A stretch of DNA of 64,000 bases from a virus: IMG/VR virus record IMGVR_UViG_3300029049_000006, one strand, 5' to 3'. Positions 29,735-60,049 of the stretch are shown in pieces; the stretch's first letter is position 1; each line of letters begins with the position of its first letter. The translations under genes were made by a program, and so were the position numbers. The notes under the pieces were generated by a model. That model ran no database searches, was not told where the DNA came from, and saw only the letters and a program-made list of their open reading frames with translations.

Positions 29735-29848
29735 ATGATTGATGCAATCTCCAATATGCTGGGCATGGCTCTCATATTTACCATAGCGTACTTGTCTTAT
29801 TTAATCGGCAGGCAGGACGCTGGCAAAAATGAAAAAAGAAAGAAATGA
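29735..29848 (+). CDS. small hydrophobic peptide (37 aa)
   Basis: MIDAISNMLGMALIFTIAYLSYLIGRQ.... ATG 29735 within track ORF 29612-29848. Confidence 0.25.
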   Translation: MIDAISNMLGMALIFTIAYLSYLIGRQDAGKNEKRKK

Positions 29849-30222
29849 AAAAGACTACTGAACAAACAGCCTTTTATTGGTACGGATTTTATAAAGCCTG
29901 CCTGAAATTAAAAATTAAAGAGGCCCGCAATTATGCTGAGTGTGAATACGGGAGGCAATACGGTGAGCTGGCATCAGCGGGGCGAGAAGAGTGCCTGGTA
30001 TATGCCGGGGTCAGGTCTTACATTATTCTGACCCGAAGAGCACGCCGCTCATGCCGGTTATTTGGCATACCCAGCGCTGAACGGTCATGTGTTAATTGTG
30101 CGTATGTCGATTTATTGCATTACCAGCCGCCATGTAATAATTGCCTTCGTTCCCCGTATGCCGTGCATGGAGAAACAACCGACGATGCCTGGAAGCCGAC
30201 TGGAAAATGGCAAATTCCATAA
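29845..30222 (+). CDS. TPEQ/Cys4 family paralog 4 (divergent)
   Basis: MKKTTEQTAFYWYGF.... RRSCRLF...ERSCVNC....PPCNNC...AWKP. Confidence 0.45.
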   Translation: MKKTTEQTAFYWYGFYKACLKLKIKEARNYAECEYGRQYGELASAGREECLVYAGVRSYIILTRRARRSCRLFGIPSAERSCVNCAYVDLLHYQPPCNNCLRSPYAVHGETTDDAWKPTGKWQIP

Positions 30223-31145: not shown

Positions 31146-32636
31146 ATGCACCAGGACACCGACGCAGAAAATGCCGCCAGTCAGAGCCGGTTGAACGAAA
31201 CCGCCATGCTGATTCCCCGGCTGCTGTTAAAAGCCCGTACTGATTTTATTGCATTTTTGCTTGCCATTTCCGACGACGAATCCGGCTACATCCTGTCCCG
31301 AATGCACCTGTTTATTGCGGGCAAGCTCAATGATACCGTCACCCGGAAGGACGTGCCGAGGAATTACACTATTTCCGTACCACCCCAGCACGGGAAGTCC
31401 TCCCTGATTGTGCGGTATGTCGCGTGGCTGGTTGGGTCTTATCCCAGATTGTGCGTTGCCCTGACCGGCTTCTCCGCTGAATTGATGGGTCAGATGCTCC
31501 GGCAGGTCACATCCATTATGGATTTGCCCGTGTACCAGGTAATTTTTCCCGGAGTGAAAGTGAAGCCGAAGGATGACCGCTGGGACTATAAACGGTTCAC
31601 CAATGACGCTATTATTTATGCTAAGCCGGCAGGCTCCAAGCTGACCGGGAGGCGGGTGGACATCCTCATTATTGACGACCCCCATGCCGGACGTGCCGAA
31701 GCCGAATCCCCCACTATCCGCAACCGCGTTGTGCAGTGGGCAGTTGCAGACTGCTTTTCCCGCCTTTCGCCTCATTGGCGGGTGTTTGTCATTGGAACCC
31801 GGTGGCATCCGGAAGACCTCATTGGACATCTCACCGGGCGGGAATACAATAAACGGCTTGAAATGCTTGGCAATACCGCCATGAAATTTGAAGTCATCAA
31901 GATTCCCGCTATCTGCGAAGACCCGGCTACCGACCCCCTGGGGCGGAAGGCTGGGGAAGTAGCATTCCCGGAAGAGCGTGACTTGGAGTTTTTAACATCC
32001 ATCCGTGGGGCCATGACTACGACAGAATGGAAATCCCAGTATCAGCAGGAGCCGGTCACGTCCAAGGGCGGGCAGGTCAACGCGGACGATTTTAACCTCA
32101 TTTCCCCGGAGGAAGTGCCGTGGAGCGAGCTGACGGCCATAGGCTCCGGCTGGGACTTGGCCGCAACCGACAAAACGGCATCCGACTGGACCGTGGGCGC
32201 ATGCGGGGCGCGGACAAAGGATGGCCGCCTGTATATTTTCGACCAGTTCCGCAGGCAAATGCAGATTCCAAAACTGCTTCCGGCCATTGAAGCCCGCGCC
32301 CTGGCGTGGAAAGATATGTACGGGGCCAATCAGCTGGGCGTGGAAGGCGTGGGGGGCATGGTGGGGTATTATCAGCAGCTCCGGCAAATGCTCCTGGGAA
32401 AAATCAGCGTGCGGCTCAAAAATCCCCCGGTCAAAGGAGGGGGAAAACTGGTGCGGGCGCAAAACTGGCTGGCTCTGGTGGAGGCAAAAAAAGTGTATCT
32501 GGTACAGGCTCCCTGGGTGCGGTCGTTTCTGGAAGAGGTGGAAGTATTCCCGGACGGGGACCACGATGACCAGGTGGACAGCGTATCCATTCTTTACGAG
32601 CTTCTGTTTCTCTCCGCCCGCATTCTGGTCGGATAG
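31146..32636 (+). CDS. terminase large subunit
   Basis: Walker A VPPQHGKSSLIV. Walker B-like VDILIIDDPHAG. FVIGTRWHPEDL. Nuclease domain DLAATDKTASDWTV ... FPDGDHDDQVDSVS. Confidence 0.85.
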   Translation: MHQDTDAENAASQSRLNETAMLIPRLLLKARTDFIAFLLAISDDESGYILSRMHLFIAGKLNDTVTRKDVPRNYTISVPPQHGKSSLIVRYVAWLVGSYPRLCVALTGFSAELMGQMLRQVTSIMDLPVYQVIFPGVKVKPKDDRWDYKRFTNDAIIYAKPAGSKLTGRRVDILIIDDPHAGRAEAESPTIRNRVVQWAVADCFSRLSPHWRVFVIGTRWHPEDLIGHLTGREYNKRLEMLGNTAMKFEVIKIPAICEDPATDPLGRKAGEVAFPEERDLEFLTSIRGAMTTTEWKSQYQQEPVTSKGGQVNADDFNLISPEEVPWSELTAIGSGWDLAATDKTASDWTVGACGARTKDGRLYIFDQFRRQMQIPKLLPAIEARALAWKDMYGANQLGVEGVGGMVGYYQQLRQMLLGKISVRLKNPPVKGGGKLVRAQNWLALVEAKKVYLVQAPWVRSFLEEVEVFPDGDHDDQVDSVSILYELLFLSARILVG

Positions 32637-32988: not shown

Positions 32989-33864
32989 ATGACAGTTCAA
33001 ACCTTACCGGCAACCGTGCCGGACAGCGTTTCTGCGACCTTGCGCGTCGTCATGAAGCCCGTGGAATCAATTCACCCCTACGAAAATAACCCCCGCTACA
33101 ACGACAGCGCGGTTCCCTACGTCAAAAACTCAATTCAGGAGTTCGGCTTCAAGGTTCCGATTATCGTCGATGAAGCCGGAAGCATTGTCTGCGGTCACAC
33201 GAGGTACAAGGTGGCCCTGGAATTGGGCATGAGCCATGTGCCTTGCATTGTCGCTTCGGATTTGACCCCAAAGCAGATTCAGGCGTTCCGCCTTGTTGAT
33301 AACAAGGTGTCGGAGTTTTCAAGCTGGGATTTTTCCAAACTTGAAATTGAGATAGGGGAGCTGGATGCCGAATTTAATCTTGATGACTTCGGTTTTTTCT
33401 CCGATTCAGAGCGGGCGGGAAGCTCGCCGGCGGATGTGGGCAGTGCCGCAGAAATGCAGGATGATACTGCGAGGGATGACCGGAATATCTATACAGGACG
33501 CATCATTACTCCGGTTTATGAAATTACCGGGGATTGTCCAAAAACCGAAGAGCTGGTTGACCGCACCAGAGCGGAATCCCTGCTGGAAGAGATTGACCGG
33601 ACCCCAGGGCTTCCGGATGCCGTGCGTGACTTTTTGCGTATTGCCGCCATGCGGCACTATGTCCTGCATTTCGACAGGATAGCCGAGTTTTACGCCCATG
33701 CGGTCCCTCCTGTGCAGCGGCTCATGGAAAACTCCTGTCTGGTCATTATTGATTATGACCGCGCCATTGAACTTGGATATGTGCAAATGGCACGTGCCCT
33801 GGCCGATGAATATGACCGAGAATACCCGGAAGGGGAAGAACAGGAAGGAGGCAGCGAATCATGA
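32989..33864 (+). CDS. ParB N-terminal (ParB/Srx nuclease-like) domain protein, paralog A
   Basis: FGFKVPIIVDEAGSIVCGHTRYKVALELGMSHVPC is a ParB-NTD signature (GHxR). Acidic linker. Conserved C-terminal domain shared with 37018-37860 (TPVYEITGDCP...FLRIAAMRHYVLHFDRIAEFYAHA). ATG 32989, and the track ORF begins at 32773. Confidence 0.6.
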   Translation: MTVQTLPATVPDSVSATLRVVMKPVESIHPYENNPRYNDSAVPYVKNSIQEFGFKVPIIVDEAGSIVCGHTRYKVALELGMSHVPCIVASDLTPKQIQAFRLVDNKVSEFSSWDFSKLEIEIGELDAEFNLDDFGFFSDSERAGSSPADVGSAAEMQDDTARDDRNIYTGRIITPVYEITGDCPKTEELVDRTRAESLLEEIDRTPGLPDAVRDFLRIAAMRHYVLHFDRIAEFYAHAVPPVQRLMENSCLVIIDYDRAIELGYVQMARALADEYDREYPEGEEQEGGSES

Positions 33865-34796
33865 TGCGGCACTCTGATTTCTGCGTCCTGATTATTTCCC
33901 ATGGACGGGCCGGGAGGGTGAAAACCCTGAACGCGCTTGAGCGTTTTGGCTATAGCGGCCCCTGGTACATTATTATCGACAATGAGGATTCACAGGCCGG
34001 GGACTACCTTAATTGCTATGGGAGTGACCACGTTGTTGTTTTTGATAAACCCCTTGAGGCATCCAGGCTGGACATAGCGGATAATTTTACAGGCCGTCTT
34101 GGGCGCAAAAGTACCGTGTACGTACGCAATGCGAGCTTTGACATTGCCCGCCGCCTGGGATTCCGGTATTTCATGGTGCTGGACGACGATTACGACTATT
34201 TCCGTTTCGTATTGGACAGCAACCGCCGCTATACTTGCCGGCGCTGTACCTGTCTGGACACAATCCTTGACATCTGCCTCGATTACTTCACCCGTACACC
34301 GGCCCTTGCCACCATAGCGTGGCTTCAAGGCGGCGACCTGCTGGGAGGGGCCAACTCCAACAGCCTTTTCAGCCTCCGGCGAAAAGCCATGAACAGTTTT
34401 ATCTGTGACACGGAACGCCCCTTTTCCTTCATGGGCCGGTTTAATGAAGACGTGAACACCTACATCACTCACGGAAACCGGGGAGTGATCATGTTCTCAA
34501 TTACGGAATTGGCGCTTAACCAGGCCAGCACCCAGCAGACGACGGGAGGGATGACGGAAGCCTACCAGGAAAACGGAACCTACGTGAAATCGTTTTACAG
34601 TGTCATGCATATGCCGTCTGCGGTGAAAATCCGGACAATGGGCGAACATTACCGAAGAATCCACCATGCTATTACATGGAATAATTGTGTGCCGAAAATC
34701 ATCCGTCCGGAGTACCAGAAACCGGATATTGTGCGGGGTGACAGAAGAAAACGCGGCAGGAGCCGAAAAAAACTGCTTGCAATTCCGGCCCCTTAA
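33861..34796 (+). CDS. GT-A-fold glycosyltransferase-like protein (DxD), paralog A
   Basis: FCVLIISHGRAGRV (cf. GT2 N-terminal vsIIIPTYNR). DxD YFMVLDDDYDYF. Paralog of 37906-38769. Confidence 0.5.
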   Translation: MMRHSDFCVLIISHGRAGRVKTLNALERFGYSGPWYIIIDNEDSQAGDYLNCYGSDHVVVFDKPLEASRLDIADNFTGRLGRKSTVYVRNASFDIARRLGFRYFMVLDDDYDYFRFVLDSNRRYTCRRCTCLDTILDICLDYFTRTPALATIAWLQGGDLLGGANSNSLFSLRRKAMNSFICDTERPFSFMGRFNEDVNTYITHGNRGVIMFSITELALNQASTQQTTGGMTEAYQENGTYVKSFYSVMHMPSAVKIRTMGEHYRRIHHAITWNNCVPKIIRPEYQKPDIVRGDRRKRGRSRKKLLAIPAP

Positions 34797-34909
34797 TAGG
34801 ATATTGCGATTGTTACCCGCCCAACGGGAACCCGACAACAACCAATAATAGCTGCTATCCAGAAAAGACAAGCCCCCGGCCCCTTCCTGCATCCCACCCG
34901 CGTATCGGA

Positions 34910-35308
34910 TTGCCTGTCATGTGTACTGCAGGAAACCGGGGGCTTGTTTTCTTTCCCCCCTCAGGGTATAACGGCGGCGTTATGATTGCCTTGAATACTC
35001 CTATTGCCACCATACCGGGGCGCCGGTACTGCATCACCACAGTATCTTCCGTCCAGGTGATTGCCGTCATTGACGACGAAGAGTTTGATTTGCTGGGGGG
35101 CCTTCCCATTACTGGCCAGGCGCAATTTGTCGCCCCCACGGACCACATTGAGGTGCGTGACGCGTCAGCCCCGGAAGAAGGGGCGGCGGCCAGCGCATCG
35201 GAATCATCCCCAGAAACGTCAAGCGTCATGTTTGACGGCTCTGCAACGCCCCTTGCCGGAGACGCGGCTTCCGTGTCCGGGAGCATCGTCGAAATTGTAC
35301 GCAGTTGA
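34910..35308 (+). CDS. hypothetical protein
   Basis: Track ORF of 132 aa. Probable start is a later ATG (MIALNTPIATI...). Ser/Ala-rich. Confidence 0.3.
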   Translation: MPVMCTAGNRGLVFFPPSGYNGGVMIALNTPIATIPGRRYCITTVSSVQVIAVIDDEEFDLLGGLPITGQAQFVAPTDHIEVRDASAPEEGAAASASESSPETSSVMFDGSATPLAGDAASVSGSIVEIVRS

Positions 35309-35567
35309 CAAGCTATCCCGGATTTGGCAGGATGCTCCCTGCATGCGCGACGCGCTTCAAAGGCGTGGATTGAGGCGATAAGGGCATGCTTTCGCAGGGT
35401 GTATGTGTGGGAGACGTAATGAGCTCTCCCCTTCCCCTGCGGCAAACGGGAACAACAAAAAAGGGGATGCCCTTCCTTTTTTCCAGGATGGCCGCAGTTT
35501 TCCGCTGTGGGGAAAGAAGGAAGGGTATTTTTCCGCCTCCAATTTTTCTTTTTATTCTTTGTGCCTG

Positions 35568-36359
35568 ATGCAGATTCCTCCCCCCCCTGATAAATTCCGA
35601 ATGCACTGTATCATTCCCCTGAAAGCACGCTCTATGCGTTGCCCAGGAAAAAATTTCAGAACCTGCAACCCGTATCTTTCCGGGGGCCTGATTCCGCTGT
35701 GGGAAGTGTCGGCCAGGTACGTCAGGGGCGAGGGATGGGAACCAGTTATTTCCTGTGACAGTCCGGAATTGTTGCATGATATTTCCCGGCGCGGATATGA
35801 ACGCACTGTTTTATGGCATCCTGACCCGGAATCCCCATATATGCAGGGCCACATCAGTCAGGTTGCCGCGCAGATTAACGCCGGGGATTCCGACCTGCTT
35901 TGCGTAGTCCAGGCAACTTCCCCGGTAAGACGGCCCGGACTGCTTCGGGACATGCACACCTTGATGTCATCCGATACCAATATTCAGGTGGCTTTTACAG
36001 GGGAACGCCTGAAAATTTGCGGCATCCTGAATGGCTCTCTTTTTGGGCAGGATGAAAGCCAGTCCGCCCGGCACTGGTACGACCACTATGACGGGGCGCT
36101 TTTACTACTGCGCTATGATACTCTGAAACGCTGCCCCCCCCGAACAGTCGTGCATCCAGGGCTGCTGTCCGGCCCCAGTGATAAAGTGGCCGTGTTTTAC
36201 CAGACCCTGCCTTGGTCATTCCAAATCGACACGGAAGACGATTATTCCTTTTATCTGCAACTGCGGCGGCCTGATGCGGAAAAACAGTCAGCCTTCCGCA
36301 AACGGTCGAACCCGTACCGGGTATATACAAAAAGCGCAGCCCCTGATGAATTGGCATGA
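35568..36359 (+). CDS. CMP-sugar synthetase-like cytidylyltransferase (NeuA/KdsB/PseF CTP_transf_3 family)
   Basis: CIIPLKARSMRCPGKN (cf. IIPARGGSKGIPxKN). VQATSPVRRPG (cf. LQPTSPLR). A C9 homopolymer lies between ATG 35568 and the conserved core, so the start and frame there are uncertain. The track ORF starts at 35403. Confidence 0.55.
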   Translation: MQIPPPPDKFRMHCIIPLKARSMRCPGKNFRTCNPYLSGGLIPLWEVSARYVRGEGWEPVISCDSPELLHDISRRGYERTVLWHPDPESPYMQGHISQVAAQINAGDSDLLCVVQATSPVRRPGLLRDMHTLMSSDTNIQVAFTGERLKICGILNGSLFGQDESQSARHWYDHYDGALLLLRYDTLKRCPPRTVVHPGLLSGPSDKVAVFYQTLPWSFQIDTEDDYSFYLQLRRPDAEKQSAFRKRSNPYRVYTKSAAPDELA

Positions 36360-36955
36360 TTGTATTGGTAGGAAATGCCCAGGAATCCGAACACCGGCTT
36401 AAAGACTGCTCCGCTTTTATTGATTCCGGCAAGCCCCGGCTGGTGGTGAGGGTGTCGAAAATGTGCAACTATGATTCCGGAAAAACCGGAACGCGCTGTG
36501 ACTGGGTGTTCCTCAACCCTAATCCCATGTACTGGACCTTTCCGCCAGAGCGCCGCCATTGGAATGTGCTTGCCGGGGCCAGTAAAATCATCATCACCTA
36601 TCCCCCTCCCGGAAGCCTGAAAGAAGGGCCTTGCATTCCTCCGTACTGGCAAAAGGAAGAATACCGGTTTCTGCACCAGCACCCTTTTCTGGAATATTTG
36701 CCGGAGGCGGTGTTCCGGGAAGGGATGGACCGGCGGCTGACGACGTTCGGATTTGCCCTGTGGGTGCTTTCGCGGCGTTTCCCGCATGAGCAGATAGCCC
36801 TGCATGGGTGCATTACCTCGCAGAATGCGTGGCGCCGTGTCCGCTGGTGCCCCTGGCACAATGGCGTTGGCGAGTTTGCCCTGTATGCCAATCTGTCCCG
36901 GAACGGTCGGATTTTCAGGCTGGACGGCGGCGAATTATGCTTTAATGAGGATTGA
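36356..36955 (+). CDS. hypothetical protein
   Basis: 199 aa. Start overlaps the upstream stop (ATGA). N-terminus MIVLVGNAQ is Rossmann-like. Confidence 0.4.
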   Translation: MIVLVGNAQESEHRLKDCSAFIDSGKPRLVVRVSKMCNYDSGKTGTRCDWVFLNPNPMYWTFPPERRHWNVLAGASKIIITYPPPGSLKEGPCIPPYWQKEEYRFLHQHPFLEYLPEAVFREGMDRRLTTFGFALWVLSRRFPHEQIALHGCITSQNAWRRVRWCPWHNGVGEFALYANLSRNGRIFRLDGGELCFNED

Positions 36956-36979
36956 AACCATGCTAAGAATCCATGAGAA

Positions 36980-36996
36980 TTTGCAATCATTGCAAA
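36980..36996. repeat. intergenic palindrome, copy 12
   Basis: Perfect copy between the 36356 gene and ParB-like paralog B. Confidence 0.9.
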
Positions 36997-37017
36997 TTTC
37001 AAAAATCATTTTTACAC

Positions 37018-37860
37018 ATGGAAATTGTAGATATTGCCGTAAAAGACCTGGTTCCTTACGATAAAAATCCGCGCCGTAATGATGAAGCGGCCGTCAAGGT
37101 GGCGGAATCCATTAAACAGTTCGGCTTTAAGATTCCTCTTGTGGTTGACCGCAATAATGTTGTTGTCTGCGGACACACCCGTTTAAAGGCCGCAAAAAAG
37201 TTAAAGCTTAAAACTGTTCCTTGCATCCGGGCTGACGATTTGTCGGAAGACCAAATCAAGGCGTTCCGTCTGGTGGACAATCGGACGGCGGAAATCGCCG
37301 AATGGGATTTTGCCCTTTTAGAAGAGGAACTGGCGGACGTGCAGCTTGACATGACCGCCTTTGACTTCGGTGGGCTTTTGCCGGAAGAAGAGGGTGGGGG
37401 CGAAAACGGTCAGACCTCGGCGGGGGCCGGAAATGGAAGGGAGGAAGAAAGTGCATTACCGGATTCGCAAACTGCGGAAAATATGTACACGCAGCGCATC
37501 GTCACTCCGGTTTATGAAGTTACCGGGGATTGCCCGGAAGTGTCTTCTCTGGTGGACAAGGGCAAAGCGGAAGCGCTGCTGGAATCCATTGACCAAGCCC
37601 AGGAACTCCCGGATGATGTGCGGGAGTTTTTACGCATCGCCGCTGCCAGGCATTATGTTTTGCATTTTGACCGCATTGCCGAATACTACGCCCATGCCCC
37701 GGCCCATATTCAGCGGCTCATGGAAGATTCCTGTCTGGTCATCATTGATTTTAATAAAGCCATTGAGCAGGGATATATCCGCATGTCCGAACGGTTGGCC
37801 GCGCTGGCCAGCATAGACGAACAGGGCGCAACGGAAGAAGAAGACGAAGCGGGCGAATAA
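37018..37860 (+). CDS. ParB N-terminal (ParB/Srx nuclease-like) domain protein, paralog B
   Basis: FGFKIPLVVDRNNVVVCGHTRLKAAKKLKLKTVPC. Same C-terminal domain as paralog A. ATG 37018. The track ORF starts at 36973 and reads through palindrome copy 12. Confidence 0.6.
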   Translation: MEIVDIAVKDLVPYDKNPRRNDEAAVKVAESIKQFGFKIPLVVDRNNVVVCGHTRLKAAKKLKLKTVPCIRADDLSEDQIKAFRLVDNRTAEIAEWDFALLEEELADVQLDMTAFDFGGLLPEEEGGGENGQTSAGAGNGREEESALPDSQTAENMYTQRIVTPVYEVTGDCPEVSSLVDKGKAEALLESIDQAQELPDDVREFLRIAAARHYVLHFDRIAEYYAHAPAHIQRLMEDSCLVIIDFNKAIEQGYIRMSERLAALASIDEQGATEEEDEAGE

Positions 37861-37905
37861 CACAGGCCGCTTTGATTTTTTTACCGCAATAACTTTTCTT
37901 TTTTT

Positions 37906-38769
37906 ATGCTGACGCATTCCGATTTTTGTACGTTTATTTTGTCTCATGGGCGGCCAAATAACATCAGAACTCTGCACCCATTGTTAAACACCGGAAACTA
38001 CAGCGGCCCCTGGTACATCGTCATCGACAATGAGGACCCCACGGCGGAAACCTATTATCAGCTTTACGGCTCCAACCGGGTAATCATGTTTGACAAGGAG
38101 GCCGAAGCCCGCCGTCTGGATATTGCAGATAATTTCATCCACATGAGCCGCAAGACTATTACCTATGCTCGTAATGCCTGTTATGACATTGCCAGAAACT
38201 TAGGCTACACGTATTTTTGGCAACTGGATGACGATTATTGCCGGTTCCGGTACGTAACCGACCAGGCCGGAAAATACGTGTACCACAGCATCCGCCACAT
38301 GGACGAGGCGTTGAACGCGACGCTTGATTATTATAAAAGCGTTCCTTCCCTGACCCTGCTGTCCTGGATGCAGGGCGGGGATTTACTGGGCGGCGCCAAC
38401 AGCCAGTCTTTAACCGTGGTGAAGCGAAAAGCCATGAACAGCTTTATTTGCTCTACCGAGCGCCCCATAAAGTTCCGGGGCCGGATGAATGAGGACGTAA
38501 ACACCTATGTTTCCGAGGGCAACCGGGGAAAACTCATTATGATGGCGAATTGTGCCGGCATTTTACAGACCCCCACCCAGATTAACGACGGAGGAATCAC
38601 GGAACTTTACAGGTCTTGCGGCACTTACACCAAAGCAATGTACACTGTGATGCATATGCCCTCAGTAACTACAGTGGGCATGATGCACAGCACTTTTCCC
38701 CGGATTCACCACACGATAAATTGGAACAACTGCGTTCCGAAAATTATCCGGCAGGAGCTTAAAAAATAG
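37906..38769 (+). CDS. GT-A-fold glycosyltransferase-like protein (DxD), paralog B
   Basis: FCTFILSHGRPNNI. YFWQLDDDYCRF. Collinear with paralog A throughout. Confidence 0.5.
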   Translation: MLTHSDFCTFILSHGRPNNIRTLHPLLNTGNYSGPWYIVIDNEDPTAETYYQLYGSNRVIMFDKEAEARRLDIADNFIHMSRKTITYARNACYDIARNLGYTYFWQLDDDYCRFRYVTDQAGKYVYHSIRHMDEALNATLDYYKSVPSLTLLSWMQGGDLLGGANSQSLTVVKRKAMNSFICSTERPIKFRGRMNEDVNTYVSEGNRGKLIMMANCAGILQTPTQINDGGITELYRSCGTYTKAMYTVMHMPSVTTVGMMHSTFPRIHHTINWNNCVPKIIRQELKK

Positions 38770-38867: not shown

Positions 38868-38884
38868 TTTGCAACCATTGCAAA
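38868..38884. repeat. intergenic palindrome, copy 13 (TTTGCAACCATTGCAAA)
   Basis: One mismatch + T7. Confidence 0.85.
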
Positions 38885-39646: not shown

Positions 39647-40207
39647 ATGAAACTGACACTTGAGCAGAAAGCTTTTTATGAATATGGCCGGGCTGTGGAA
39701 TCCCTCAAGAGGACAATTTACGAAACCCGCGAAACTGCTATTCAGGAATTCAAAGACCCATACCGCCTGCTTTCGACATATGACCGGAAACAGCTGATTG
39801 ACGCAATGGGCCTTGCCTCGGAGATTTCTGCTGTCCGGCAGAAGCGTGCCGCGTGCAGGATGTGGAAGTTGCCAGCACAAAGACATTGCCAGAATTGTTG
39901 TTATTACGAAAAATCCGGCAATGATGCGCCCTGTGTCGATTGTACCTTGGGAGACATTAGTGATAATACTCGTCTTATCTGTAATTGGGCGCCAAGGCGC
40001 AAGTTCAAAAAAGGTGATATTGTACGTCGGATTGATACCGGAAAAATGCGGGTGCATGATGACCACATTCCATTCGGAAAACTTGTAACCGTACTGAAAG
40101 ATGAGACCGATGATAACTGTGGAAATATCTTAGTCGGAAATAGAGAAACTATACAGGCCGTAAAATTCTATGAAGTGAAACTTTTTTTAAAAAAAGCTAA
40201 CGATTGA
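39647..40207 (+). CDS. TPEQ/Cys4 family paralog 5 (with C-terminal extension)
   Basis: MKLTLEQKAFYEYGRA.... RAACRMW...QRHCQNC....APCVDC...NWAP. Confidence 0.5.
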   Translation: MKLTLEQKAFYEYGRAVESLKRTIYETRETAIQEFKDPYRLLSTYDRKQLIDAMGLASEISAVRQKRAACRMWKLPAQRHCQNCCYYEKSGNDAPCVDCTLGDISDNTRLICNWAPRRKFKKGDIVRRIDTGKMRVHDDHIPFGKLVTVLKDETDDNCGNILVGNRETIQAVKFYEVKLFLKKAND

Positions 40208-40213
40208 TTGACC

Positions 40214-40408
40214 ATGAAAAAAGAAGAACTTAAATGCTTTATATGTGGACAAGCATTAGAATTAGTTGATGACTCTGCGCAAATAGAGCATATGGGTTAC
40301 GACAGGCACAATGACCGCCCGTTTTTTAATGTCTGCCGTGAATGTCAACAACTTATCGACAAATGCCTTATAGAATTTGAGCAGAAATTTCCAGATGAAG
40401 ACGCTTAA
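40214..40408 (+). CDS. small zinc-ribbon protein
   Basis: MKKEELKCFICGQ....NVCRECQ. First ATG 40214 (the track starts at TTG 40208). Confidence 0.4.
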   Translation: MKKEELKCFICGQALELVDDSAQIEHMGYDRHNDRPFFNVCRECQQLIDKCLIEFEQKFPDEDA

Positions 40409-40739
40409 ATGTCCGTTGTGCGGGAGTTTGTTGAAACTGGATTTCAGTTGCAAATATATTTGCCCCAATTGCGAACTAGCTGCAAAAAGCGGAATCTCAA
40501 AAGAAGAGGCACTAAAACGTGCAGAAAAACTTATTTCTCAATTCCCACCTATCATGCGGGTATTTCCAGGAGATAAGTTAAAGTTTTTTAACCACCAAAT
40601 GCGCCAGAAAATCGCATCCATAGAAAAAGTTAATTTGAAGTCTGGCTGGATAAAAACAAACAAAGGATTTGCCCGCCCGGATGATGTGATTCTGTGGCCC
40701 TGGGAACTTGAACAAACAGAAGAAGGAAATAAACAATGA
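40395..40739 (+). CDS. zinc-ribbon protein, WPWELE family paralog
   Basis: MKTLKCPLCG...CPNC. FPPIMRVFPGDKL. WPWELEQTEE. Confidence 0.5.
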   Translation: MKTLKCPLCGSLLKLDFSCKYICPNCELAAKSGISKEEALKRAEKLISQFPPIMRVFPGDKLKFFNHQMRQKIASIEKVNLKSGWIKTNKGFARPDDVILWPWELEQTEEGNKQ

Positions 40740-41077
40740 AAACACCTAGATGTCCATTATGCGGAGAAGAATTAGCGCCGTCTGTACAAAGCTACGGATT
40801 TGAATACGTTTGCTGGAAGTGCAAATGGCAAACCGCTTCACTCTGCTCCACCGAGCAAGGAGCGAAAAAAGCAGCTCAAAAACTAATCTCCAAGTTCCCT
40901 CCCATCATGAGGGTTCATCCTGGCGATAAGCTTCATGACAAGTGGTGCGGACTGGTCACGGTTGAATCCGTTGATAAGGAAGACTGTGTAATCACAGTAC
41001 GAACTGTCAAGGGGAATGTATCCCGTACTTATTGCGAGGATGTTAATGAATGGCCTTGGGAAATCGAACAAGAATAA
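40736..41077 (+). CDS. zinc-ribbon protein, WPWELE family paralog
   Basis: MKTPRCPLCG...CWKCKW. FPPIMRVHPGDKL. WPWEIEQE. Confidence 0.5.
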   Translation: MKTPRCPLCGEELAPSVQSYGFEYVCWKCKWQTASLCSTEQGAKKAAQKLISKFPPIMRVHPGDKLHDKWCGLVTVESVDKEDCVITVRTVKGNVSRTYCEDVNEWPWEIEQE

Positions 41078-45553: not shown

Positions 45554-46123
45554 ATGCCTATGAAAGACAACATCCTAGTGTTATGCCACAGCAACATGCA
45601 CCGCAGCCCGTTCGTTGCGGAATTCATCCGGAACTCCCCCTATGGAGACAGCTATGAAGTCCGCGACGCGGGACTGCACGTTGACAAGGAGCAGCGCGTG
45701 CCCAAATCCCTTCAGCGGGCCTTCCAGACCGTCTCCCAGGGGAGCCTGAAAAGCCACAAGTCGCGCCCGGTGGGAATCAGCGATATTCTGTGGGCGGATA
45801 AAATAATCATCATGGAGCCGGAGAACAAAAACGACCTCCTGCAAATGCTCGGAAGCCTGCACCTCTCCGACAAGCCCCGGTACGACCAGATTGTCTCCAA
45901 AATAATCTCCCTGGCCCAAATCGGCGGGAAGACAGCCGTGGACGACCCTCACCACTACTCCCCCGGAACGATCGAATACGGAAAAGTAGTATTAAACCTC
46001 GCCTGCCTGACAGCCGTCCTTCTGGAAACGTGGGAAGCCCAGCGTTCATTGAGCGGAGGGGAAAAATCCAAAGACCGGAAACCGGACGACGCGGAATCCG
46101 CAGCAGGCCCATTCGGAGCTTGA
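45554..46123 (+). CDS. low-molecular-weight protein tyrosine phosphatase (LMW-PTP/ArsC-like)
   Basis: P-loop ILVLCHSNMHRSPFVAEF gives CX5R(S) (cf. LCLGNICRSPMAE). DPYY-like loop AVDDPHHYSPG. Confidence 0.6.
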   Translation: MPMKDNILVLCHSNMHRSPFVAEFIRNSPYGDSYEVRDAGLHVDKEQRVPKSLQRAFQTVSQGSLKSHKSRPVGISDILWADKIIIMEPENKNDLLQMLGSLHLSDKPRYDQIVSKIISLAQIGGKTAVDDPHHYSPGTIEYGKVVLNLACLTAVLLETWEAQRSLSGGEKSKDRKPDDAESAAGPFGA

Positions 46124-49829: not shown

Positions 49830-49879
49830 TTTTTTTCGCACTCTCATGAGTGCGTGGATTGAAACTGCAACACCAGCCT

Positions 49880-50545
49880 ATGAGCGTTTTTACCTATCCG
49901 GTCGAGGGCCTTCGCCGCGTGCTGATTCCGCAGAAATGCGGCTGGACGCTAGCCTGGGATTCCCTCCCCCGCTGGAACGGTCGGGTGGTGATTGACTCCA
50001 ATGACTACCCCGCGAAAAATCTGGACTGCATGTTTGTCAGGGAGCCGGTGGCCCGGTTCATGTCCGCTTTCCGGAACAAGATAGAGTTCGGGCCGCAGTC
50101 CTACCCCAAAAACGCCAACGGTCAGTTCAACGTCTGGTCCGGCATCCAATGGGTTGCCTGTGTGTGCGGCATCCCCCCGGACCTGGTGCAGAAGCAGGTT
50201 ACTGTGTCCCTGATGCTGGACGTGTTGGAGGACATCATCAAAAAAAAACCGAGGGCGGCGCAATACAACCACGCCGTACTTGACCCGCACTGGTCCCCGC
50301 AGGTCTATCATGTGGCCCCCGGCCATATTCCGGAACTGCTCATTGACCCCCGGAACGATTTTTCCGTCCTGGACAGATTAAAAATTGACTACTCTACGCA
50401 CAATCACAATAATACCAGCCGTTATGGAGGCTACCAGCCTACACCGGAAGAGGTCGCACGCATCAAGGCCCTGTATGCCGAGGATGTAGCACTTTACGCC
50501 AGATACCAGCATGATTACGCCCTTCGCCAGTTACCCGCCCAGTGA
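49880..50545 (+). CDS. sulfotransferase-family protein
   Basis: 5'-PSB-like CMFVREPVARFMSAFRNKI (cf. FVFVRNPWDRLVSAY). C-terminal YGGYQPTPEEVARIKALYAEDVALY resembles the Stf0 / Sulfotransfer_3 tail. ATG 49880 (the track starts at GTG 49850). Confidence 0.55.
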   Translation: MSVFTYPVEGLRRVLIPQKCGWTLAWDSLPRWNGRVVIDSNDYPAKNLDCMFVREPVARFMSAFRNKIEFGPQSYPKNANGQFNVWSGIQWVACVCGIPPDLVQKQVTVSLMLDVLEDIIKKKPRAAQYNHAVLDPHWSPQVYHVAPGHIPELLIDPRNDFSVLDRLKIDYSTHNHNNTSRYGGYQPTPEEVARIKALYAEDVALYARYQHDYALRQLPAQ

Positions 50546-51362
50546 CGCCCCGGAGTTCATCAAATACTCCCACCACCTGATTGACCTCGCCTTGAGAAAA
50601 GCCCGGCGTCCGGCCATCCTCTGTTCCTACGGCAAGGATTCCGGCGTTGTCCTGCATTTGCTCTCCCAGCACGTCGATTTATCCCGCATCGACGTTATTT
50701 ACATTGATTCCACTTTTGAATTCCCGGCGTTTTACAAGCACATTGCCAGGATGAAGGCTTTTTTCGGCATCCGGCACGGCGGCCCTCATGACGTGCGCTG
50801 CCAGAATAACCAGGCCATCCGTTCCGGCATGTCCTACGACAACACCCCGGTGCTCAAGTTGACGCAGACCCTGAAAACCGACGTATTGGTGCAGGTGCTG
50901 AAAGAGCGGAATATTGACTTTCTGTTCACCGGCATCCGGCGCGACGAAGAGGGTTCTCGCGCCAAGGAACGTTATTTTTCCTACCGGGAAGCCGACGGCA
51001 CGTTTGACCCGGTAAGCAACCGCCCCGGATTCTACCCGTTGGATGGGCTGGATGTGCAGTCCCCCGGTTCCGGGCACTATCGCGTCAATATCCTTCTGAG
51101 CTGGTCGGAGCGGGACGTATGGGAGTACACGGAAAAGCACCTGCTTCCTGTCTGCCCGCTGTACCTTGCCAAAAACGGGAAACGCTACCGCTCCCTTGGA
51201 GACGAGCCGGTGACTACTCCGGTGGATTCCGACGCTGACAGTATCGACAAAATCATTAAGGAGCTGTACCATACCAGCGTGCCGGAACGGGCATGCCGGA
51301 AATCACAGGATAATTCCGCGCCGTATGCAATGGAGATGCTGCGGCGCAAGGGATTCTGCTAA
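50511..51362 (+). CDS. cysD: sulfate adenylyltransferase subunit 2-like (CysD/NodP, PAPS-reductase superfamily PP-loop)
   Basis: PP-loop ILCSYGKDSGVVLHLL. LFTGIRRDEEGSRAKERYFSYRE matches the CysD signature GxRRDEEKSRAKERIFSFRD. LSWSERDVWEYTEKHLLPVCPLYL (cf. NWTELDIWQYI..E.IP.VPLYF). Confidence 0.75.
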   Translation: MITPFASYPPSDAPEFIKYSHHLIDLALRKARRPAILCSYGKDSGVVLHLLSQHVDLSRIDVIYIDSTFEFPAFYKHIARMKAFFGIRHGGPHDVRCQNNQAIRSGMSYDNTPVLKLTQTLKTDVLVQVLKERNIDFLFTGIRRDEEGSRAKERYFSYREADGTFDPVSNRPGFYPLDGLDVQSPGSGHYRVNILLSWSERDVWEYTEKHLLPVCPLYLAKNGKRYRSLGDEPVTTPVDSDADSIDKIIKELYHTSVPERACRKSQDNSAPYAMEMLRRKGFC

Positions 51363-51392
51363 CAGTTCCATTTTTTCCTTTCCGCTCTTGCC

Positions 51393-52115
51393 ATGATACC
51401 GGATGACCCGTTCACCCAGCCGGAAAAAAAACCTGAAAAGCCGGGAGGCATCACGCAAATCTGGATAGGCGGAGAAGATAATATACCGCAGGAAATGCGG
51501 GAATGGATGTCCGGGGTGCGGGCCTACTGTAACCGGTTCGACCTTCCGTACCGCTGCTTGAACGGGAGGCAATGCAAGGCCCTGCTGGATGAGTTCGGCA
51601 TCCCGTTCAACCCTACCGGGGGCATCATGAGCCTGACCGACATGGCGCGGGTGTGCGCCCTGAAAAAATGGGGCGGCTGGTATCTGGACACAGACGTAAA
51701 AATCCAGCGTCCGGCAGCCTTCCATGATTACTCGGTTTCCGTCTGCGAACAGGAGCCTTCTACTGTTTTTTACAATGCCATCACCTACGGCTGGATGTAC
51801 AATCACGGAGTGCTTTACGCTTCCGGGGACGATTCCTGTTTGTTTCTGGATGTCATGCTGGATGCGTGCCGGGAGACGTACAGGACAGTCCATGCTTCCG
51901 ATTCCGGGTGGGGGCTGGAAAGCACCGTTCAAAATATAGTGCATCATGACCGCCAATGGGTAGGCTGGCATCGAGGACTGCCAAAGGGCGTTTGCGATTG
52001 CGGCAATCCGTCCAGCATGATTAACCATGTGCTTTATGGGACCTGGTACAATAGCGCACACATGACTCCCGGCATCAAGGACGCGGAAACTTATTCAAGG
52101 GTTTCCGATTTGTAG
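51393..52115 (+). CDS. glycosyltransferase, GT32-like (Gly_transf_sug, DxD)
   Basis: ITQIWIGGEDNIPQE. KKWGGWYLDTDVK. Matches the conserved QIWIG / GGxYxDxD blocks. Confidence 0.55.
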   Translation: MIPDDPFTQPEKKPEKPGGITQIWIGGEDNIPQEMREWMSGVRAYCNRFDLPYRCLNGRQCKALLDEFGIPFNPTGGIMSLTDMARVCALKKWGGWYLDTDVKIQRPAAFHDYSVSVCEQEPSTVFYNAITYGWMYNHGVLYASGDDSCLFLDVMLDACRETYRTVHASDSGWGLESTVQNIVHHDRQWVGWHRGLPKGVCDCGNPSSMINHVLYGTWYNSAHMTPGIKDAETYSRVSDL

Positions 52116-52164
52116 CCCGGAATAATTTTTGCAAAAAAGAAAAAACAATGGTAATACGTAGCGC

Positions 52165-53016
52165 ATGCCACGTGAAAAAATCATCATTGCCGTGTGCGGA
52201 ATCCCTGACACGGGAAAAAGCACCTTTATCGCCAACGCCGCAAAACACCTGAACGGAATGGAGGTCCAACCGGATGCCCTGTGCGTAGAACAGCAGACCG
52301 GGAAAACCATTGCAACCTCATTCATCACCACCTGGGGCGAAGAGTGGCAGCGGGACGGAAAAACCTGCGATTTGGTCTTTGTGGACTGCCCCGGCCATGT
52401 GCAGTTCCTTCCGGAGATTGTCGCGGGCTTGTCTGCGGCCCATGCCTACATTGTCATCCATGACGCTTCCCGCATTGAGGCGAGCCAGGCATATGCCCGG
52501 ATGCTGGAAGATGTCGCAGGCGTGCTTAGCGTGCCTCGGCTCGCCACCCTCTACAGCCATTGCGACAGCACCGGGGAATACTGCTACAACGTAGGTGTTG
52601 ACAACCGGCTTCCGGGAACTGCCGAAAGGGTTATCCGGCGTGCCCTGGCGGGCGGCAAAGATAAGCTGGTCCATCCCACGGCATCCTGGCTTGGCTACAT
52701 CCGGCAGGAGCCGTTCGATACGCCTGATGCCCGGCACAGGGTGTCCGTCATCTGGCTTCCCTGCGCTTCCCGGCTCACTCCGGTTTCCCTTCTCCGGGCG
52801 GAGCTTCCCGACCGAACGGTCGAACTCGGAGAGGCTGGCTCCGTTCTAGACCCCATCCCCAGGGAAAGCGACTTCCAGACCGCCCCATTGATACGGCACA
52901 TTTACCTGCAATTCCCTGTCCGGTATCTGGACCCCGTGCGCTTCCTGATTTGCGACTCGGAGCTGGGAACGGTCGGAGTCGGAACAGTAACCCCGTGGGA
53001 AACCCAAATGTTATGA
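52165..53016 (+). CDS. EF-Tu-like GTPase, CysN/NodQ-like (GTPase domain only)
   Basis: G1 AVCGIPDTGKSTFI (cf. GHVDHGKST). G3 DCPGHVQF. No clear NKxD. 283 aa, shorter than CysN. Confidence 0.45.
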   Translation: MPREKIIIAVCGIPDTGKSTFIANAAKHLNGMEVQPDALCVEQQTGKTIATSFITTWGEEWQRDGKTCDLVFVDCPGHVQFLPEIVAGLSAAHAYIVIHDASRIEASQAYARMLEDVAGVLSVPRLATLYSHCDSTGEYCYNVGVDNRLPGTAERVIRRALAGGKDKLVHPTASWLGYIRQEPFDTPDARHRVSVIWLPCASRLTPVSLLRAELPDRTVELGEAGSVLDPIPRESDFQTAPLIRHIYLQFPVRYLDPVRFLICDSELGTVGVGTVTPWETQML

Positions 53017-53234
53017 GCAACGTAGCCATCCCCTACCGGCCCCACGACTGCCCCGTCTGCGGAAAGAACCTTTGCTACAGCGCCGGAAAGGACGGCTGCT
53101 ATTATTCCTGCCCGGAATGCAGGTATTCCGTCCAGTCCGGTGCGACCCTGCAAGAAGCACAAAGGCATCTTTTCATTTTTACGGCGGCAGTCCTCAAAAA
53201 TCAGAACACGCAACACGACACCATCATCCAATGA
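53013..53234 (+). CDS. small zinc-ribbon protein
   Basis: CPVCGKNLCYSAGKDGCYYSCPEC. ATG 53013 overlapping the upstream stop. Confidence 0.35.
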   Translation: MSNVAIPYRPHDCPVCGKNLCYSAGKDGCYYSCPECRYSVQSGATLQEAQRHLFIFTAAVLKNQNTQHDTIIQ

Positions 53235-53734
53235 TTATTCTTCTCACCGGCGAAAGCGGCGTAGGAAAAACGTCTGTGGCAAAAACCCTGATGAACCGGC
53301 ATCCAGGCATCCTTCTCGACGGCGATGACATGCGGGACGGATTGAACAGCGACCTCGGATTTTCCGACCGGGACATCATGGAGAACATGCGCCGGGCGGC
53401 GCACATAGCCGTACTGCTGCATGACCAGCTTCCGGAAGACCGGCGCACGGTTTACATCACCTGCATTGCCCCGCTGCTGGCCGGAAGGAATCTGGTGCAT
53501 GAGCTGTGCGGTTCCCGGTTGTGGGAGATCCGCATCCAGTATGATTACCGGGCCTCCGACGACGTAAAAGGATTGTACAAGGCGGGAACCCCCATGCGGG
53601 CCTACGAAGAGTACCCCAGCGAAACGTTGCTGCTCCCCCGCCGGATAAACCGCGTATATCGGTACTACAACGATACCGTGTGCGCTCTGGCCGCCAAAAT
53701 AGAAAAGCTGTGGCCCACAGACAAAACCGCTTGA
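53231..53734 (+). CDS. cysC: adenylylsulfate (APS) kinase
   Basis: P-loop LTGESGVGKTSVA. LDGDDMRDGLNSDLGFSDRDIMENMRRAAHIAVLL matches CysC [34 protein letters not shown] (cf. FISP). Confidence 0.8.
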   Translation: MIILLTGESGVGKTSVAKTLMNRHPGILLDGDDMRDGLNSDLGFSDRDIMENMRRAAHIAVLLHDQLPEDRRTVYITCIAPLLAGRNLVHELCGSRLWEIRIQYDYRASDDVKGLYKAGTPMRAYEEYPSETLLLPRRINRVYRYYNDTVCALAAKIEKLWPTDKTA

Positions 53735-56520: not shown

Positions 56521-57079
56521 AAATCACTACAAACCGGGTACAGCGGTACTAGTCCGGGGAATTGTCGTAGGAGAATATAACCCCGATGATGGTAATGCTT
56601 CCGTTTCCGTAAGGCTTAATACCCATATGGATTATGGGCGTAATATACTGTTTTCCCCGGATAAGCTGGAAAAGGTTAAACCTGCTTCCAACAGGAGATT
56701 CCGGAAAGGGGACAAGGTACGCCTTATTTACAGAGGCCGAGAGGCCCCGGAAGGGTTGCGGTATGATAAAATCTACACTGTGACGGAGAATGAAACCGCA
56801 TATGGCCTGTGCCGCCTTACTGATGGCGTTGCAAATTATTCCTGCCTGGAATTAGTTGAAGCAGCCGAAGAATCCTACGACATTCCTTTCCACGAGGCGG
56901 TGCGCCTGATGGGTGAAGGAAAAATACTGGAACGGATACGCAATGGTAATACTCTTCAATACCGGCTGGTTGACGGGAATATCCAATATTCAAATGCCGA
57001 CATAGAGGGAACCCCAGAATGGAGGTCCATAATATTTTGGGGGGAGGACATCAACGCAAAATGGAGAATTGTCAAATAA
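56513..57079 (+). CDS. hypothetical protein
   Basis: ATG 56513 (MPKNHYKPGTAVLV...) overlapping the upstream stop. Track ORF from 56438. Confidence 0.4.
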   Translation: MPKNHYKPGTAVLVRGIVVGEYNPDDGNASVSVRLNTHMDYGRNILFSPDKLEKVKPASNRRFRKGDKVRLIYRGREAPEGLRYDKIYTVTENETAYGLCRLTDGVANYSCLELVEAAEESYDIPFHEAVRLMGEGKILERIRNGNTLQYRLVDGNIQYSNADIEGTPEWRSIIFWGEDINAKWRIVK

Positions 57080-57123
57080 CCCTGAATACAATGGACAAAG
57101 AAAATTGCAAACTGGAAACAAAG

Positions 57124-57441
57124 ATGCCTGCCACTGATTCAACCCCGGAACGCCCCACACGGTATTTGCGCCCTGTCGGGGACAAAGTGCTTGTCAGGCT
57201 GAAAGAGCGCGAATCCCGCATAGGCTCTATCATTATTCCCGATTCCGCCCAAAAGGAAAACTGCTGGGGGGAAATCGTGGCTCTGGGTACTGCCGTTGAC
57301 GCGGATATCTGCCATCTGGACCTGCACGACGTTGTTTATATCAGCCCCGCGCAGGGCACTTATCTTGTTTCCGGACAAAAGGACTTGATTCTTATCGAGG
57401 CCGGGCGCATTATGGCCAAGCTGCTTCCTGACGAGGATTAA
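57124..57441 (+). CDS. GroES-like co-chaperonin (Cpn10)
   Basis: LRPVGDKVLVRLKERESRIGSIIIPDSAQKENCWGEIVALG....DLHDVVYISPAQGTYL...DLILIEAGRIMA parallels GroES (LKPLGDRVLV...GGIVLPDSAKEKP..GEVVAVG). ATG 57124. Confidence 0.65.
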   Translation: MPATDSTPERPTRYLRPVGDKVLVRLKERESRIGSIIIPDSAQKENCWGEIVALGTAVDADICHLDLHDVVYISPAQGTYLVSGQKDLILIEAGRIMAKLLPDED

Positions 57442-57545
57442 AAAGCGGGTCTCAAGAAGAACAACAATAGGCCGCCCGTGGTTAAGTCTGTTTGACTAGT
57501 CACGGGCGGTCTTTTATATTGGAGGCCGCATATAACCTCCGCAAC

Positions 57546-60032: not shown

Positions 60033-60049
60033 ACGCGCGTCGTGAACTT

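Follow-up and report, generated by a model that had tools for sequence, protein, structure and literature searches.

Introduction

Post-replicative glycosylation of phage DNA has been described for gene clusters in which a glycosyltransferase (GT) of the Pfam family TAGT ('TET-Associated Glycosyltransferase') is combined with a C5-methyltransferase and/or a 5mYOX/TET enzyme, and ParB-like and terminase genes are frequent neighbors of these clusters (PMC8256090; 10.1101/2023.12.21.572611). The clusters may hold more than one GT, giving di- or trisaccharides, and JGT-like GT-A enzymes of phages were found experimentally to put hexose, N-acetylhexosamine or heptose glycans on 5-hydroxymethylcytosine (5hmC) in DNA (Pyle et al., bioRxiv 10.1101/2023.12.21.572611). 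The linkage of ParB to TET/GT clusters, together with a suggestion that ParB directs modification during packaging, is noted in PMC8256090, which cites Iyer et al. (2013). Here we analyzed a 64,000-nucleotide stretch (the window) of IMG/VR virus record IMGVR_UViG_3300029049_000006, an uncultured gut phage, in which two copies of a gene pair, each encoding a ParB-like protein (ParB1, ParB2) and a TAGT-family GT (TAGT1, TAGT2), flank the open reading frames (ORFs) of a divergent cytidine monophosphate (CMP)-sugar synthetase (ORF C) and a predicted sialyltransferase-fold protein (ORF D). The explanation that we favor overall, with about even confidence, is that the locus consists of two diverged ParB-like/TAGT modules plus a CMP-sugar cassette.

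Other described systems resemble parts of this locus. To act on double-stranded DNA, a 5mYOX thymine dioxygenase of a phage needs its cognate ParB-like protein, which has no DNA-binding domain, and the pairing is specific (O'Toole 2026, PMC13229309); the ParB-like proteins studied here are alike in having an N-domain and a C-domain without a DNA-binding domain and in lying beside a putative DNA-modifying enzyme, whereas their partner is a GT rather than a dioxygenase, and its activation would be by analogy. Prophages carry fusions of a ParB N-domain to DNA methyltransferases (phrog_498; PMC12704722), with N-domains that reach 64% identity to the present one and with the same position, just before terminase genes. 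Modification of progeny DNA is presumed to be the common role, although the enzyme here is a separate polypeptide that would be reached via a dedicated C-domain, and the reaction would be glycosylation, not methylation. The 2025 survey of the ParB-CTPase fold lists the phage methylase fusions and no link to glycosyltransferases (PMC12704722). In the base J pathway (JBP1/2 and JGT), JGT, the closest structural relative of the phage JGT-like GT-As, glucosylates 5-hydroxymethyluracil (5hmU) in DNA (10.1101/2023.12.21.572611), and the TAGT-family proteins described here appear to belong to these JGT-like GT-A enzymes; unlike the present system, that pathway is eukaryotic (kinetoplastids), depends on a JBP hydroxylase and lacks a ParB partner. 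ORFs C and D recall, in motifs, fold and pairing, the bacterial pairs or fusions of a CMP-sialic acid synthetase with a sialyltransferase (NeuA with Cst-II/GT42 or GT29-like enzymes; Maf transferases, which put nonulosonic acid on flagellin), whereas they are phage-encoded and below Pfam thresholds, ORF D is a minimal domain of about 170–200 aa with no recognizable acceptor-binding lid, and NeuB/NeuC-type sugar-synthesis genes were not seen. The alpha- and beta-glucosyltransferases of T-even phages glucosylate hydroxymethylcytosine in DNA, and these phages form their 5hmC before replication, at the nucleotide level. For the TAGT family here, PHROG gives the label 'beta-glucosyl-HMC-alpha-glucosyltransferase', which is annotation only, and the T4 beta-glucosyltransferase has a GT-B fold (10.1101/2023.12.21.572611).

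An earlier, sequence-only reading of this DNA had held that the locus matches no described system. This claim failed, since the GTs belong to Pfam TAGT and both the 5hmC-glycosylating JGT-like enzymes and their ParB linkage have been published; phage JGT-like glycosyltransferases with ParB-like accessories are already described and partly validated. Unlike in the published clusters, a methyltransferase, 5mYOX/TET or thymidylate synthase (ThyS) partner was not found here or, in general, for the ParB-C-domain subfamily, the GT is duplicated together with its helper, and the cassette includes a CMP-sugar enzyme, which the clusters in PMC8256090 and in the Pyle preprint do not ('CMP' and 'sialic' are absent from the text of the latter). 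Not described in the papers cited here are the exclusive coupling of the C-domain to TAGT in a terminase-linked subfamily without a hydroxymethylase detected in this phage, in phage c5 or among the neighbor families listed, the duplication of the ParB-like/TAGT pair, and the placement of a CMP-sugar synthetase and sialyltransferase-fold cassette between the copies.

Two Diverged Copies of a ParB-like/TAGT Gene Pair

The module is located directly 3' of the terminase gene, and all six ORFs named in the sequence-only reading were present on the plus strand where it had placed them (Table 1). The collinear paralogy that it had proposed for the two gene pairs was borne out by alignment: ParB1 and ParB2 were 48% identical (136/281 residues, E=1e-89) and collinear through N-domain, linker and C-domain, and TAGT1 and TAGT2 aligned end to end with 54% identity (155/288 residues, E=7e-115). 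Small neighbor-joining trees with six outgroup phages placed ParB1/ParB2 and TAGT1/TAGT2 as sister pairs, suggesting that the two-gene unit was duplicated as a block, long ago. Every invariant family residue was kept in both copies at about 50% divergence, suggesting long purifying selection on both. A second TAGT was absent from all 80 IMG/VR TAGT loci examined. The motifs quoted earlier for these genes, GHTR(Y/L)K, the LI(I/L)SHGR type, LDDDY, IIPLKARSMRCPGKN and QATSPVRR, were all found, with one correction: the residue that precedes LDDDY in TAGT1 is V, not M.

Behind TerL, the seven genes ParB1-TAGT1-orf108-C-D / ParB2-TAGT2 stood in the same order in all related metagenomic contigs examined, which are human-gut metagenome assemblies of 80–96 kb and include a sister lineage whose ORF C is 77–79% identical. 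The TAGT2 protein was indexed in 389 data blocks, suggesting that the phage is common. TerL was at most 33% identical to that of any phage isolate, and the locus used as a nucleotide query had no relatives in the phage collection. The start of TAGT1 overlaps the stop of ParB1 by 4 nt, and in one related contig (L005 5298-6890) the two were called as a single 530-aa product, which may reflect either a true fusion or an indel from assembly.

Table 1. Features of the locus, with positions in the 64,000-nucleotide window.
Feature	Position	Strand	Evidence or remark
Terminase large subunit (TerL)	31146..32636	+	Pfam Terminase_6C E=6e-12, Terminase_6N E=1e-4
Palindrome TTTGCAATGATTGCAAA	32650..32666	.	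Left edge of unit 1
ParB-like protein 1 (A1, ParB1)	32989..33864	+	ParB/Srx N-domain, acidic linker, TAGT-partner C-domain; Pfam ParB_N E=2e-6; phrog_620 full length E=8e-55
TAGT-family GT-A glycosyltransferase 1 (B1, TAGT1)	33861..34796	+	Pfam TAGT PF20691 E=1e-27; phrog_842 E=9e-63
orf108, 108 aa, conserved	34982..35308	+	Predicted as a gene in every related contig
ORF C, CMP-sugar synthetase (NeuA/KdsB/PseF-type cytidylyltransferase), highly divergent	35601..36359	+	Transitive homology; start inferred
ORF D, minimal sialyltransferase-fold protein, presumed CMP-sugar transferase	36356..36955	+	Predicted structure
Palindrome copy	36980..36996	.	Between ORF D and ParB2; divides units 1 and 2
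ParB-like protein 2 (A2, ParB2)	37018..37860	+	Architecture of copy 1; Pfam ParB_N E=4e-7; phrog_620 E=1.5e-55
TAGT-family GT-A glycosyltransferase 2 (B2, TAGT2)	37906..38769	+	Pfam TAGT E=5e-31; phrog_842 E=6e-58
Palindrome copy, 1 mismatch	38868..38884	.	Downstream of TAGT2, right edge of unit 2

TAGT-Family Glycosyltransferases

TAGT1 and TAGT2 scored 97.9 and 108.8 bits against Pfam PF20691 (cutoff 27.5) over model positions 3–205 of 205, in line with the earlier assignment of both ParB partners to DxD GT-A transferases. An alignment across five phages, comprising TAGT1, TAGT2 and their Lactobacillus, Haloarcula and E. coli phage homologs, revealed as invariant R16, DDD108-110, QGGD, RKAMN, E196-D197 (NEDVN) and RIHH. 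Both copies thereby carry the GT-A active-site pattern R...DDD...ED, with V rather than Y/F following ED; the same pattern is reported for the JGT-like phage GT-As that glycosylate DNA (10.1101/2023.12.21.572611). The membership in PF20691, together with this pattern, indicates that the family is a known one, whose best-documented substrate is DNA. TAGT1 ends in a strongly basic tail, RRKRGRSRKK (34728-34796, GDRRKRGRSRKKLLAIPAP), which could be a nucleic-acid-binding extension; TAGT2 is without such a tail.

ParB-like Partner Proteins

Each ParB-like protein has an N-domain of about 115 aa that matched PF02195 with 28.1 and 30.5 bits, just above the cutoff of 26.3. A profile of five family members matched the structures of Noc, Spo0J and ParB in the PDB (E=7e-10 to 1e-7), placing the N-domain as a homolog of the Noc and Spo0J CTPase domains, and the GH(T/G)R motif with the Box II arginine, conserved in ParB-like N-domains, was found, so the earlier assignment to a genuine ParB/Srx N-domain holds. 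Identity of the N-domain to the N-terminal part of fusions annotated in prophages as 'DNA modification methylase' was 52–64% (phrog_498, E=5e-38); its closest kin in phage genomes were these methylase fusions (top identity 63.6%, ParB2 versus a Streptococcus prophage), not partition proteins. This kinship ties the N-domain to enzymes acting on DNA, and the ParB N-domain is, as far as these alignments tell, a module that phages attach to DNA-modifying enzymes.

The C-domain, of about 110 aa, had no relatives in Pfam or by sequence in the PDB. It was found in 28 of 50,697 phage records and was immediately upstream of a TAGT gene in all 28. A count of linkage among the 80 best IMG/VR TAGT loci, 72 of which held enough upstream sequence, gave the same picture: the C-domain was beside TAGT in 72/72, at most 300 nt upstream on the same strand in 68 and at a distance of about 1 kb or less in the other 4. 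This co-occurrence across phage genomes was one of the checks that the earlier reading had proposed. A stand-alone C-domain protein of 139 aa precedes TAGT in 191-kb Vibrio phages, and in pv27 it does so within the replication module. The confinement of the C-domain to loci beside TAGT suggests that it is a dedicated TAGT-partner domain. N- and C-domain are joined by acidic linkers that contain S/T residues.

No helix-turn-helix (HTH) or other recognizable DNA-binding domain was detected in the ParB-like proteins by Pfam or by the PDB profile search, and no Pfam match to the ParB dimerization domain was found. Pfam scans of the window ORFs yielded no ParA-type gene or ATPase, that is, no adjacent partition gene of the kind that would have spoken against the earlier reading. 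The lack of an HTH, of the dimerization domain and of a ParA gene argues that this is not a partition system.

Genome Context of the Pair in Other Phages

The ParB-C-domain/TAGT pair was found in at least 551 IMG/VR loci, and its cultured carriers are phages of E. coli, Salmonella, Lactobacillus, Vibrio and Nocardia and one haloarchaeal virus. The pair lies near the terminase genes in ParB-TAGT-TerS-TerL of L. gasseri phi jlb1 (TerS and TerL, small and large terminase subunits), trkG-ParB-TAGT-TerS-TerL of E. coli lambdoid phages, ParB-TAGT-TerL at the genome start of Nocardia NTR1, and cos-ParB-TAGT-...-TerL of L. delbrueckii c5; in haloarchaeal HHTV-2, TerL is about 3 kb downstream of the pair. 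We surveyed with Pfam the 143 neighbor ORFs of 28 dereplicated IMG/VR loci, which matched 102 families, 25 of them listed. The commonest neighbors were the terminase large subunit (Terminase_3, 14 ORFs; Terminase_6N, 13) and portal proteins, and the neighbor ORFs also included two N6/N4 methylases and one C5 methylase.

The CMP-Sugar Cassette

Direct scans of ORF C and ORF D against Pfam, PHROG and NCBIfam gave nothing significant, and word-indexed homolog searches matched only members of the same phage lineage. An exhaustive representative search with ORF D then revealed distant homologs of 30–45% identity, at least six of which consist of a D-like domain fused, in either order, to a C-like cytidylyltransferase domain. 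CTP_transf_3 scored above cutoff in five of these fusions (P0038, P0039, P0040, P0041 and P0043); the sixth (P0048) matched ORF C directly (E=4e-13) and had no Pfam match. Alignment of ORF C with the cytidylyltransferase regions of P0038, P0043 and P0039 covered its whole core, about 215 residues (BLASTP E=2e-20, 5e-18 and 9e-13), and ORF C shares with NeuA/KdsB-type enzymes the motifs IPxKxxSxRxPxKN, Q(A/P)TSP and QIDT; its best direct matches, to NeuA (E=0.2) and to KdsB and PseF (E=0.11), were weak. The homology to the PF02348-matching parts of the fusions indicates that ORF C is a CTP_transf_3 (PF02348) cytidylyltransferase, and through this transitive route the NeuA/KdsB-type assignment made earlier for the middle gene was confirmed. 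The start of ORF C is most likely 35601 (MHCIIPLK) and not 35403, since relatives do not keep the upstream extension in frame. In the sister lineage (P0013, P0014; L101 7001-7960), the reading frame changes for the final third of ORF C (77% identity, 79% by BLASTP), and these may be frameshifted or decaying copies or a sequencing artefact. An AlphaFold2 model of ORF C built from eight near-identical sequences was unusable (pLDDT 33) and was set aside.

The AlphaFold2 model of ORF D had a pLDDT of 78.8 and a pTM of 0.83, and Foldseek ranked Cst-II as its best match (E=4e-5); next in rank were a Pasteurella sialyltransferase, ST3Gal-I and ST6GALNAC2. ORF D is accordingly predicted by its model to be a sialyltransferase-fold protein, a GT-A variant (GT29/GT42/Maf fold), and the ORF that had been described as Rossmann-like is both real and more specific in fold than was claimed. 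The D-like part of P0040 scored 22.9 bits against Glyco_transf_29, with a cutoff of 23. A genome scan for C-D homologs, based on an alignment of four sequences, found a C-like gene directly upstream of a D-like gene in 10/10 GTDB loci, and the two were also adjacent in four other phage contigs. Every ORF D homolog examined adjoins, or is fused to, a cytidylyltransferase, and by this pattern of fusion and adjacency C and D form a Rosetta-stone pair.

The product of orf108 had no match in Pfam, PHROG or NCBIfam. Its C-terminal half is rich in Ser/Ala/Pro/Glu and looks like O-glycosylation acceptor regions.

Further Features of the Window

A 17-bp palindrome, TTTGCAAT[G/C]ATTGCAAA, occurred in 20 copies in the window, with 0.08 expected, and spanned positions 676-63732. 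The sites include 7003, 9112, 14302, 24452, 26192, 32650, 36980, 38868 and 43004, and further 47327, 49813, 53870, 56067, 60718 and 63716. Most of the copies checked were about 100 nt or less, often 10–35 nt, past the stop codon of a plus-strand gene, and the palindrome looks like a punctuation mark, acting as operator, promoter or terminator, by which the whole genome is split into units. The copies at the locus bracket ParB1-TAGT1-orf108-C-D as unit 1 and ParB2-TAGT2 as unit 2. A 22–24 nt palindrome considered as a module-specific parS-like site was ruled out by the 20 window copies, which mostly follow plus-strand stop codons.

Other genes were seen in the window. Two cysteine-motif proteins (29845-30222 and 39647-40207; 33% identity, E=6e-17) form a paralog pair on either side of the whole terminase-modification block, and two zinc-ribbon-like proteins (40377-40739 and 40736-41077; 40% identity, E=5e-23) form another, in tandem. 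A Cpn10/GroES homolog (57019-57441, E=3e-12) lies upstream of the portal gene, and a protein with a weak PAS-domain match (60011-60694) lies immediately downstream of it.

Proposed Function and Alternative Explanations

That DNA is the target of the TAGT proteins is, in our estimate, an evenly balanced proposition, and a nucleotide-sugar-dependent modification system, as suggested earlier, is still the best reading of the locus. The C-domain of each ParB-like protein would bind its cognate TAGT, and the N-domain would engage DNA, as in the ParB-methylase fusions and the ParB-dependent thymine dioxygenases. Late in the infection, at about the time of packaging, TAGT would be recruited to the double-stranded phage DNA or activated there, and would move a sugar from a nucleoside diphosphate sugar onto it. 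Having two such pairs, each TAGT with a helper of its own, may provide two specificities (bases or sequence contexts) or two successive sugars. ORF C would activate a 2-keto-3-deoxy acid sugar, such as sialic, legionaminic or pseudaminic acid or 3-deoxy-D-manno-octulosonic acid (Kdo), as its CMP derivative, and ORF D would transfer this sugar and may extend the glycan started by TAGT. The DNA model draws on the TAGT family membership, the methylase kinship of the N-domain, the packaging context and the precedent of PMC13229309, and from these we infer the DNA substrate and the ParB-mediated activation. Any cooperation between C-D and TAGT is likewise conditional: the C-D genes sit between the two ParB/TAGT copies, an arrangement conserved across the lineage, and ParB1-TAGT1 and C-D share one motif-delimited unit, yet we regard it as unlikely that they act on the same substrate.

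Several observations weigh against this proposal. The ParB-like proteins have no recognizable DNA-binding domain of their own, as described above, and in animals the TAGT-family homolog GREB1 acts as an O-GlcNAc transferase on protein (PMC7968844). 5hmC and 5hmU, the sole chemically established acceptors for this GT class, are without an evident source here: the 25 families listed, out of 102 matched by neighbors at the 28 loci, did not include TET_JBP or thymidylate synthase, no candidate hydroxymethylase was present in the c5 genome (31.8 kb), no TET/JBP (PF12851) or thymidylate-synthase-type hydroxymethylase was found by Pfam/PHROG in window ORFs of at least 180 aa (essentially all), and precomputed Pfam matches in flanks of about 20 kb contained no TET/JBP or hydroxymethylase. 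The search covered about 82 kb of this phage, with about 4–14 kb of the genome outside it. A divergent TET/JBP or hydroxymethylase among the unannotated ORFs was also considered, and none was found by Pfam/PHROG in the larger ORFs, which is a non-detection and not proof. The lack of TET/JBP and thymidylate-synthase homologs suggests that the ParB-C-domain subfamily is 'TET-associated' in name only. As to the cassette, C and D were absent from all 80 IMG/VR TAGT loci, and the C-D pair occurs in unrelated gut-phage contigs, 3' of a tail-protein-like gene, with no ParB/TAGT within 8 kb. Seven of the ten GTDB C-D loci are in Akkermansia or Verrucomicrobiales metagenome-assembled genomes (MAGs), where C and D are fused and adjoin homologs of the phage genes 46562-47317 and 57492-58562. 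These two homologs are themselves fused in one ORF directly upstream of the fused C-D (L103 3946-9506; L107 5716-8816; E=1e-44 to 1e-49). The product of 57492-58562 has GT-A-like SSYKRPN and DDDD motifs, and several C-D fusions end in a copy of its C-terminal domain. The GC content of these MAG contigs is 0.52–0.56, and that of the window is about 0.52. To judge by these homologies, the MAGs may point to the host (Akkermansia?) as well as to a glycan pathway that phage and MAGs have in common.

The phage carries other glycan genes, which bear on whether its target is a glycan or protein rather than DNA. A sulfation cluster at 49850-53734 encodes a sulfotransferase (49850-50545), a PAPS-reductase-family protein read as CysD-like (50511-51362; PAPS, 3'-phosphoadenosine 5'-phosphosulfate), a GTP_EFTU GTPase read as CysN-like (52165-53016) and an APS (adenosine 5'-phosphosulfate) kinase (53072-53734), and within it lies a DXD glycosyltransferase (about 51390-52061; Gly_transf_sug E=1.3e-4); from these genes, among them what looks like a complete set for PAPS synthesis, the phage seems able to make PAPS and sulfate something. 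A GT11 gene (fucosyltransferase family) follows a 746-aa head-morphogenesis-like gene just beyond the right end of the window (L009 12238-12954), two tandem GT25 genes precede the replication module upstream of its left end (L011 1618-3733), and a low-molecular-weight (LMW) phosphotyrosine phosphatase is encoded at 45554-46123 (LMWPc, E=1.4e-6). LMW phosphotyrosine phosphatases regulate capsule and exopolysaccharide synthesis in bacteria. Together with the independent occurrences of C-D, these genes suggest that C-D may belong to a separate glycan-building program, which may act on virion or cell-surface glycoconjugates; membership of C-D in this dispersed gene set is at least as likely as extension of a TAGT glycan. 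The broader possibility that TAGT and C-D both decorate virion proteins, a phage-encoded carrier (e.g., the orf108 product) or a host surface polysaccharide is, to us, rather unlikely. It draws on the same phage-encoded set (sulfotransferase/PAPS genes, DXD GT, GT11, two GT25 and LMW phosphatase), on the MAG fusions beside homologs of window genes, on GREB1 and on the missing hydroxymethylase, and its product could be a sialylated, fucosylated, sulfated mucin-like glycan suiting a mucus-associated host. However, the pair stands alone beside the terminase genes in small phages without other GTs, whose Gram-positive, Gram-negative and archaeal hosts have no common surface chemistry; the nearest relatives of the ParB N-domain are joined to DNA methylases; and JGT-like phage GT-As are experimentally DNA glycosyltransferases (10.1101/2023.12.21.572611). 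A glycan target is a stronger explanation for C-D alone than for the TAGT pairs.

The conserved position of the pair beside TerS, TerL or cos, and in NTR1 in the slot directly before TerL, also raises the question of whether the ParB-like protein is the central component, acting as a packaging or partition accessory (e.g., in genome or pac recognition with terminase), with TAGT regulating it or another packaging protein by glycosylation. The exclusive C-domain/TAGT linkage is what would be expected of an enzyme-substrate or enzyme-regulator pair, and the S/T residues in the linkers of the helpers would fit. Nevertheless, TerS is annotated separately in phi jlb1 and the E. coli phages, the Vibrio phages keep the C-domain-only protein and TAGT in the replication module, apart from the packaging genes, neither an HTH nor another DNA-recognition domain was detected, and glycosylation-regulated packaging is without known precedent. 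We consider this explanation very unlikely. We give equally little credence to a locus without joint function, in which the two ParB/TAGT copies are redundant remnants of duplication or of two acquisitions and C-D is a moron inserted by chance. The duplication and C-D were seen in 0/80 other TAGT loci, C-D is an independently mobile pair, and ORF C is frameshifted in some relatives (P0013, P0014), all of which speak for this view, but the retention of all invariant family residues at about 50% divergence and the conservation of the seven-gene order in all relatives seen, including the lineage with the 77–79% identical ORF C, speak against it. Returning to DNA as the substrate, a more specific version appears quite improbable to us: that the TAGT pairs glycosylate DNA without a phage-made hydroxymethylpyrimidine (by what would be a novel chemistry at the acceptor, e.g., N-glycosylation of a canonical base), that C-D caps this glycan with a CMP-activated nonulosonic acid or Kdo, and that, at packaging, a dedicated clamp or adaptor derived from ParB loads each GT onto the DNA.

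Implications for Phage Biology

No report of CMP-sugar-dependent DNA modification was found in the papers cited here, and the capped glycan, if true, would be a DNA hypermodification of a kind not seen before, one dependent on a sialic-acid-type or other CMP-sugar. In the glycan genes of this phage, those of the sialylation, fucosylation, galactosylation and sulfation type suggest phage-directed synthesis of mucin-like glycans, and the host of this abundant gut phage may be Verrucomicrobial, e.g., Akkermansia. For the family as a whole, no acceptor-making enzyme for the GT of the pair is evident in the carriers examined, and the cultured carriers make the acceptor question directly testable. 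Should DNA be the substrate of the pair, a widespread type of DNA modification in phages is being overlooked, which would bear on restriction evasion, sequencing bias and enzyme tools, and the pair would be a second case, and a tractable one, of the ParB fold being repurposed as the partner of a DNA-modifying enzyme.

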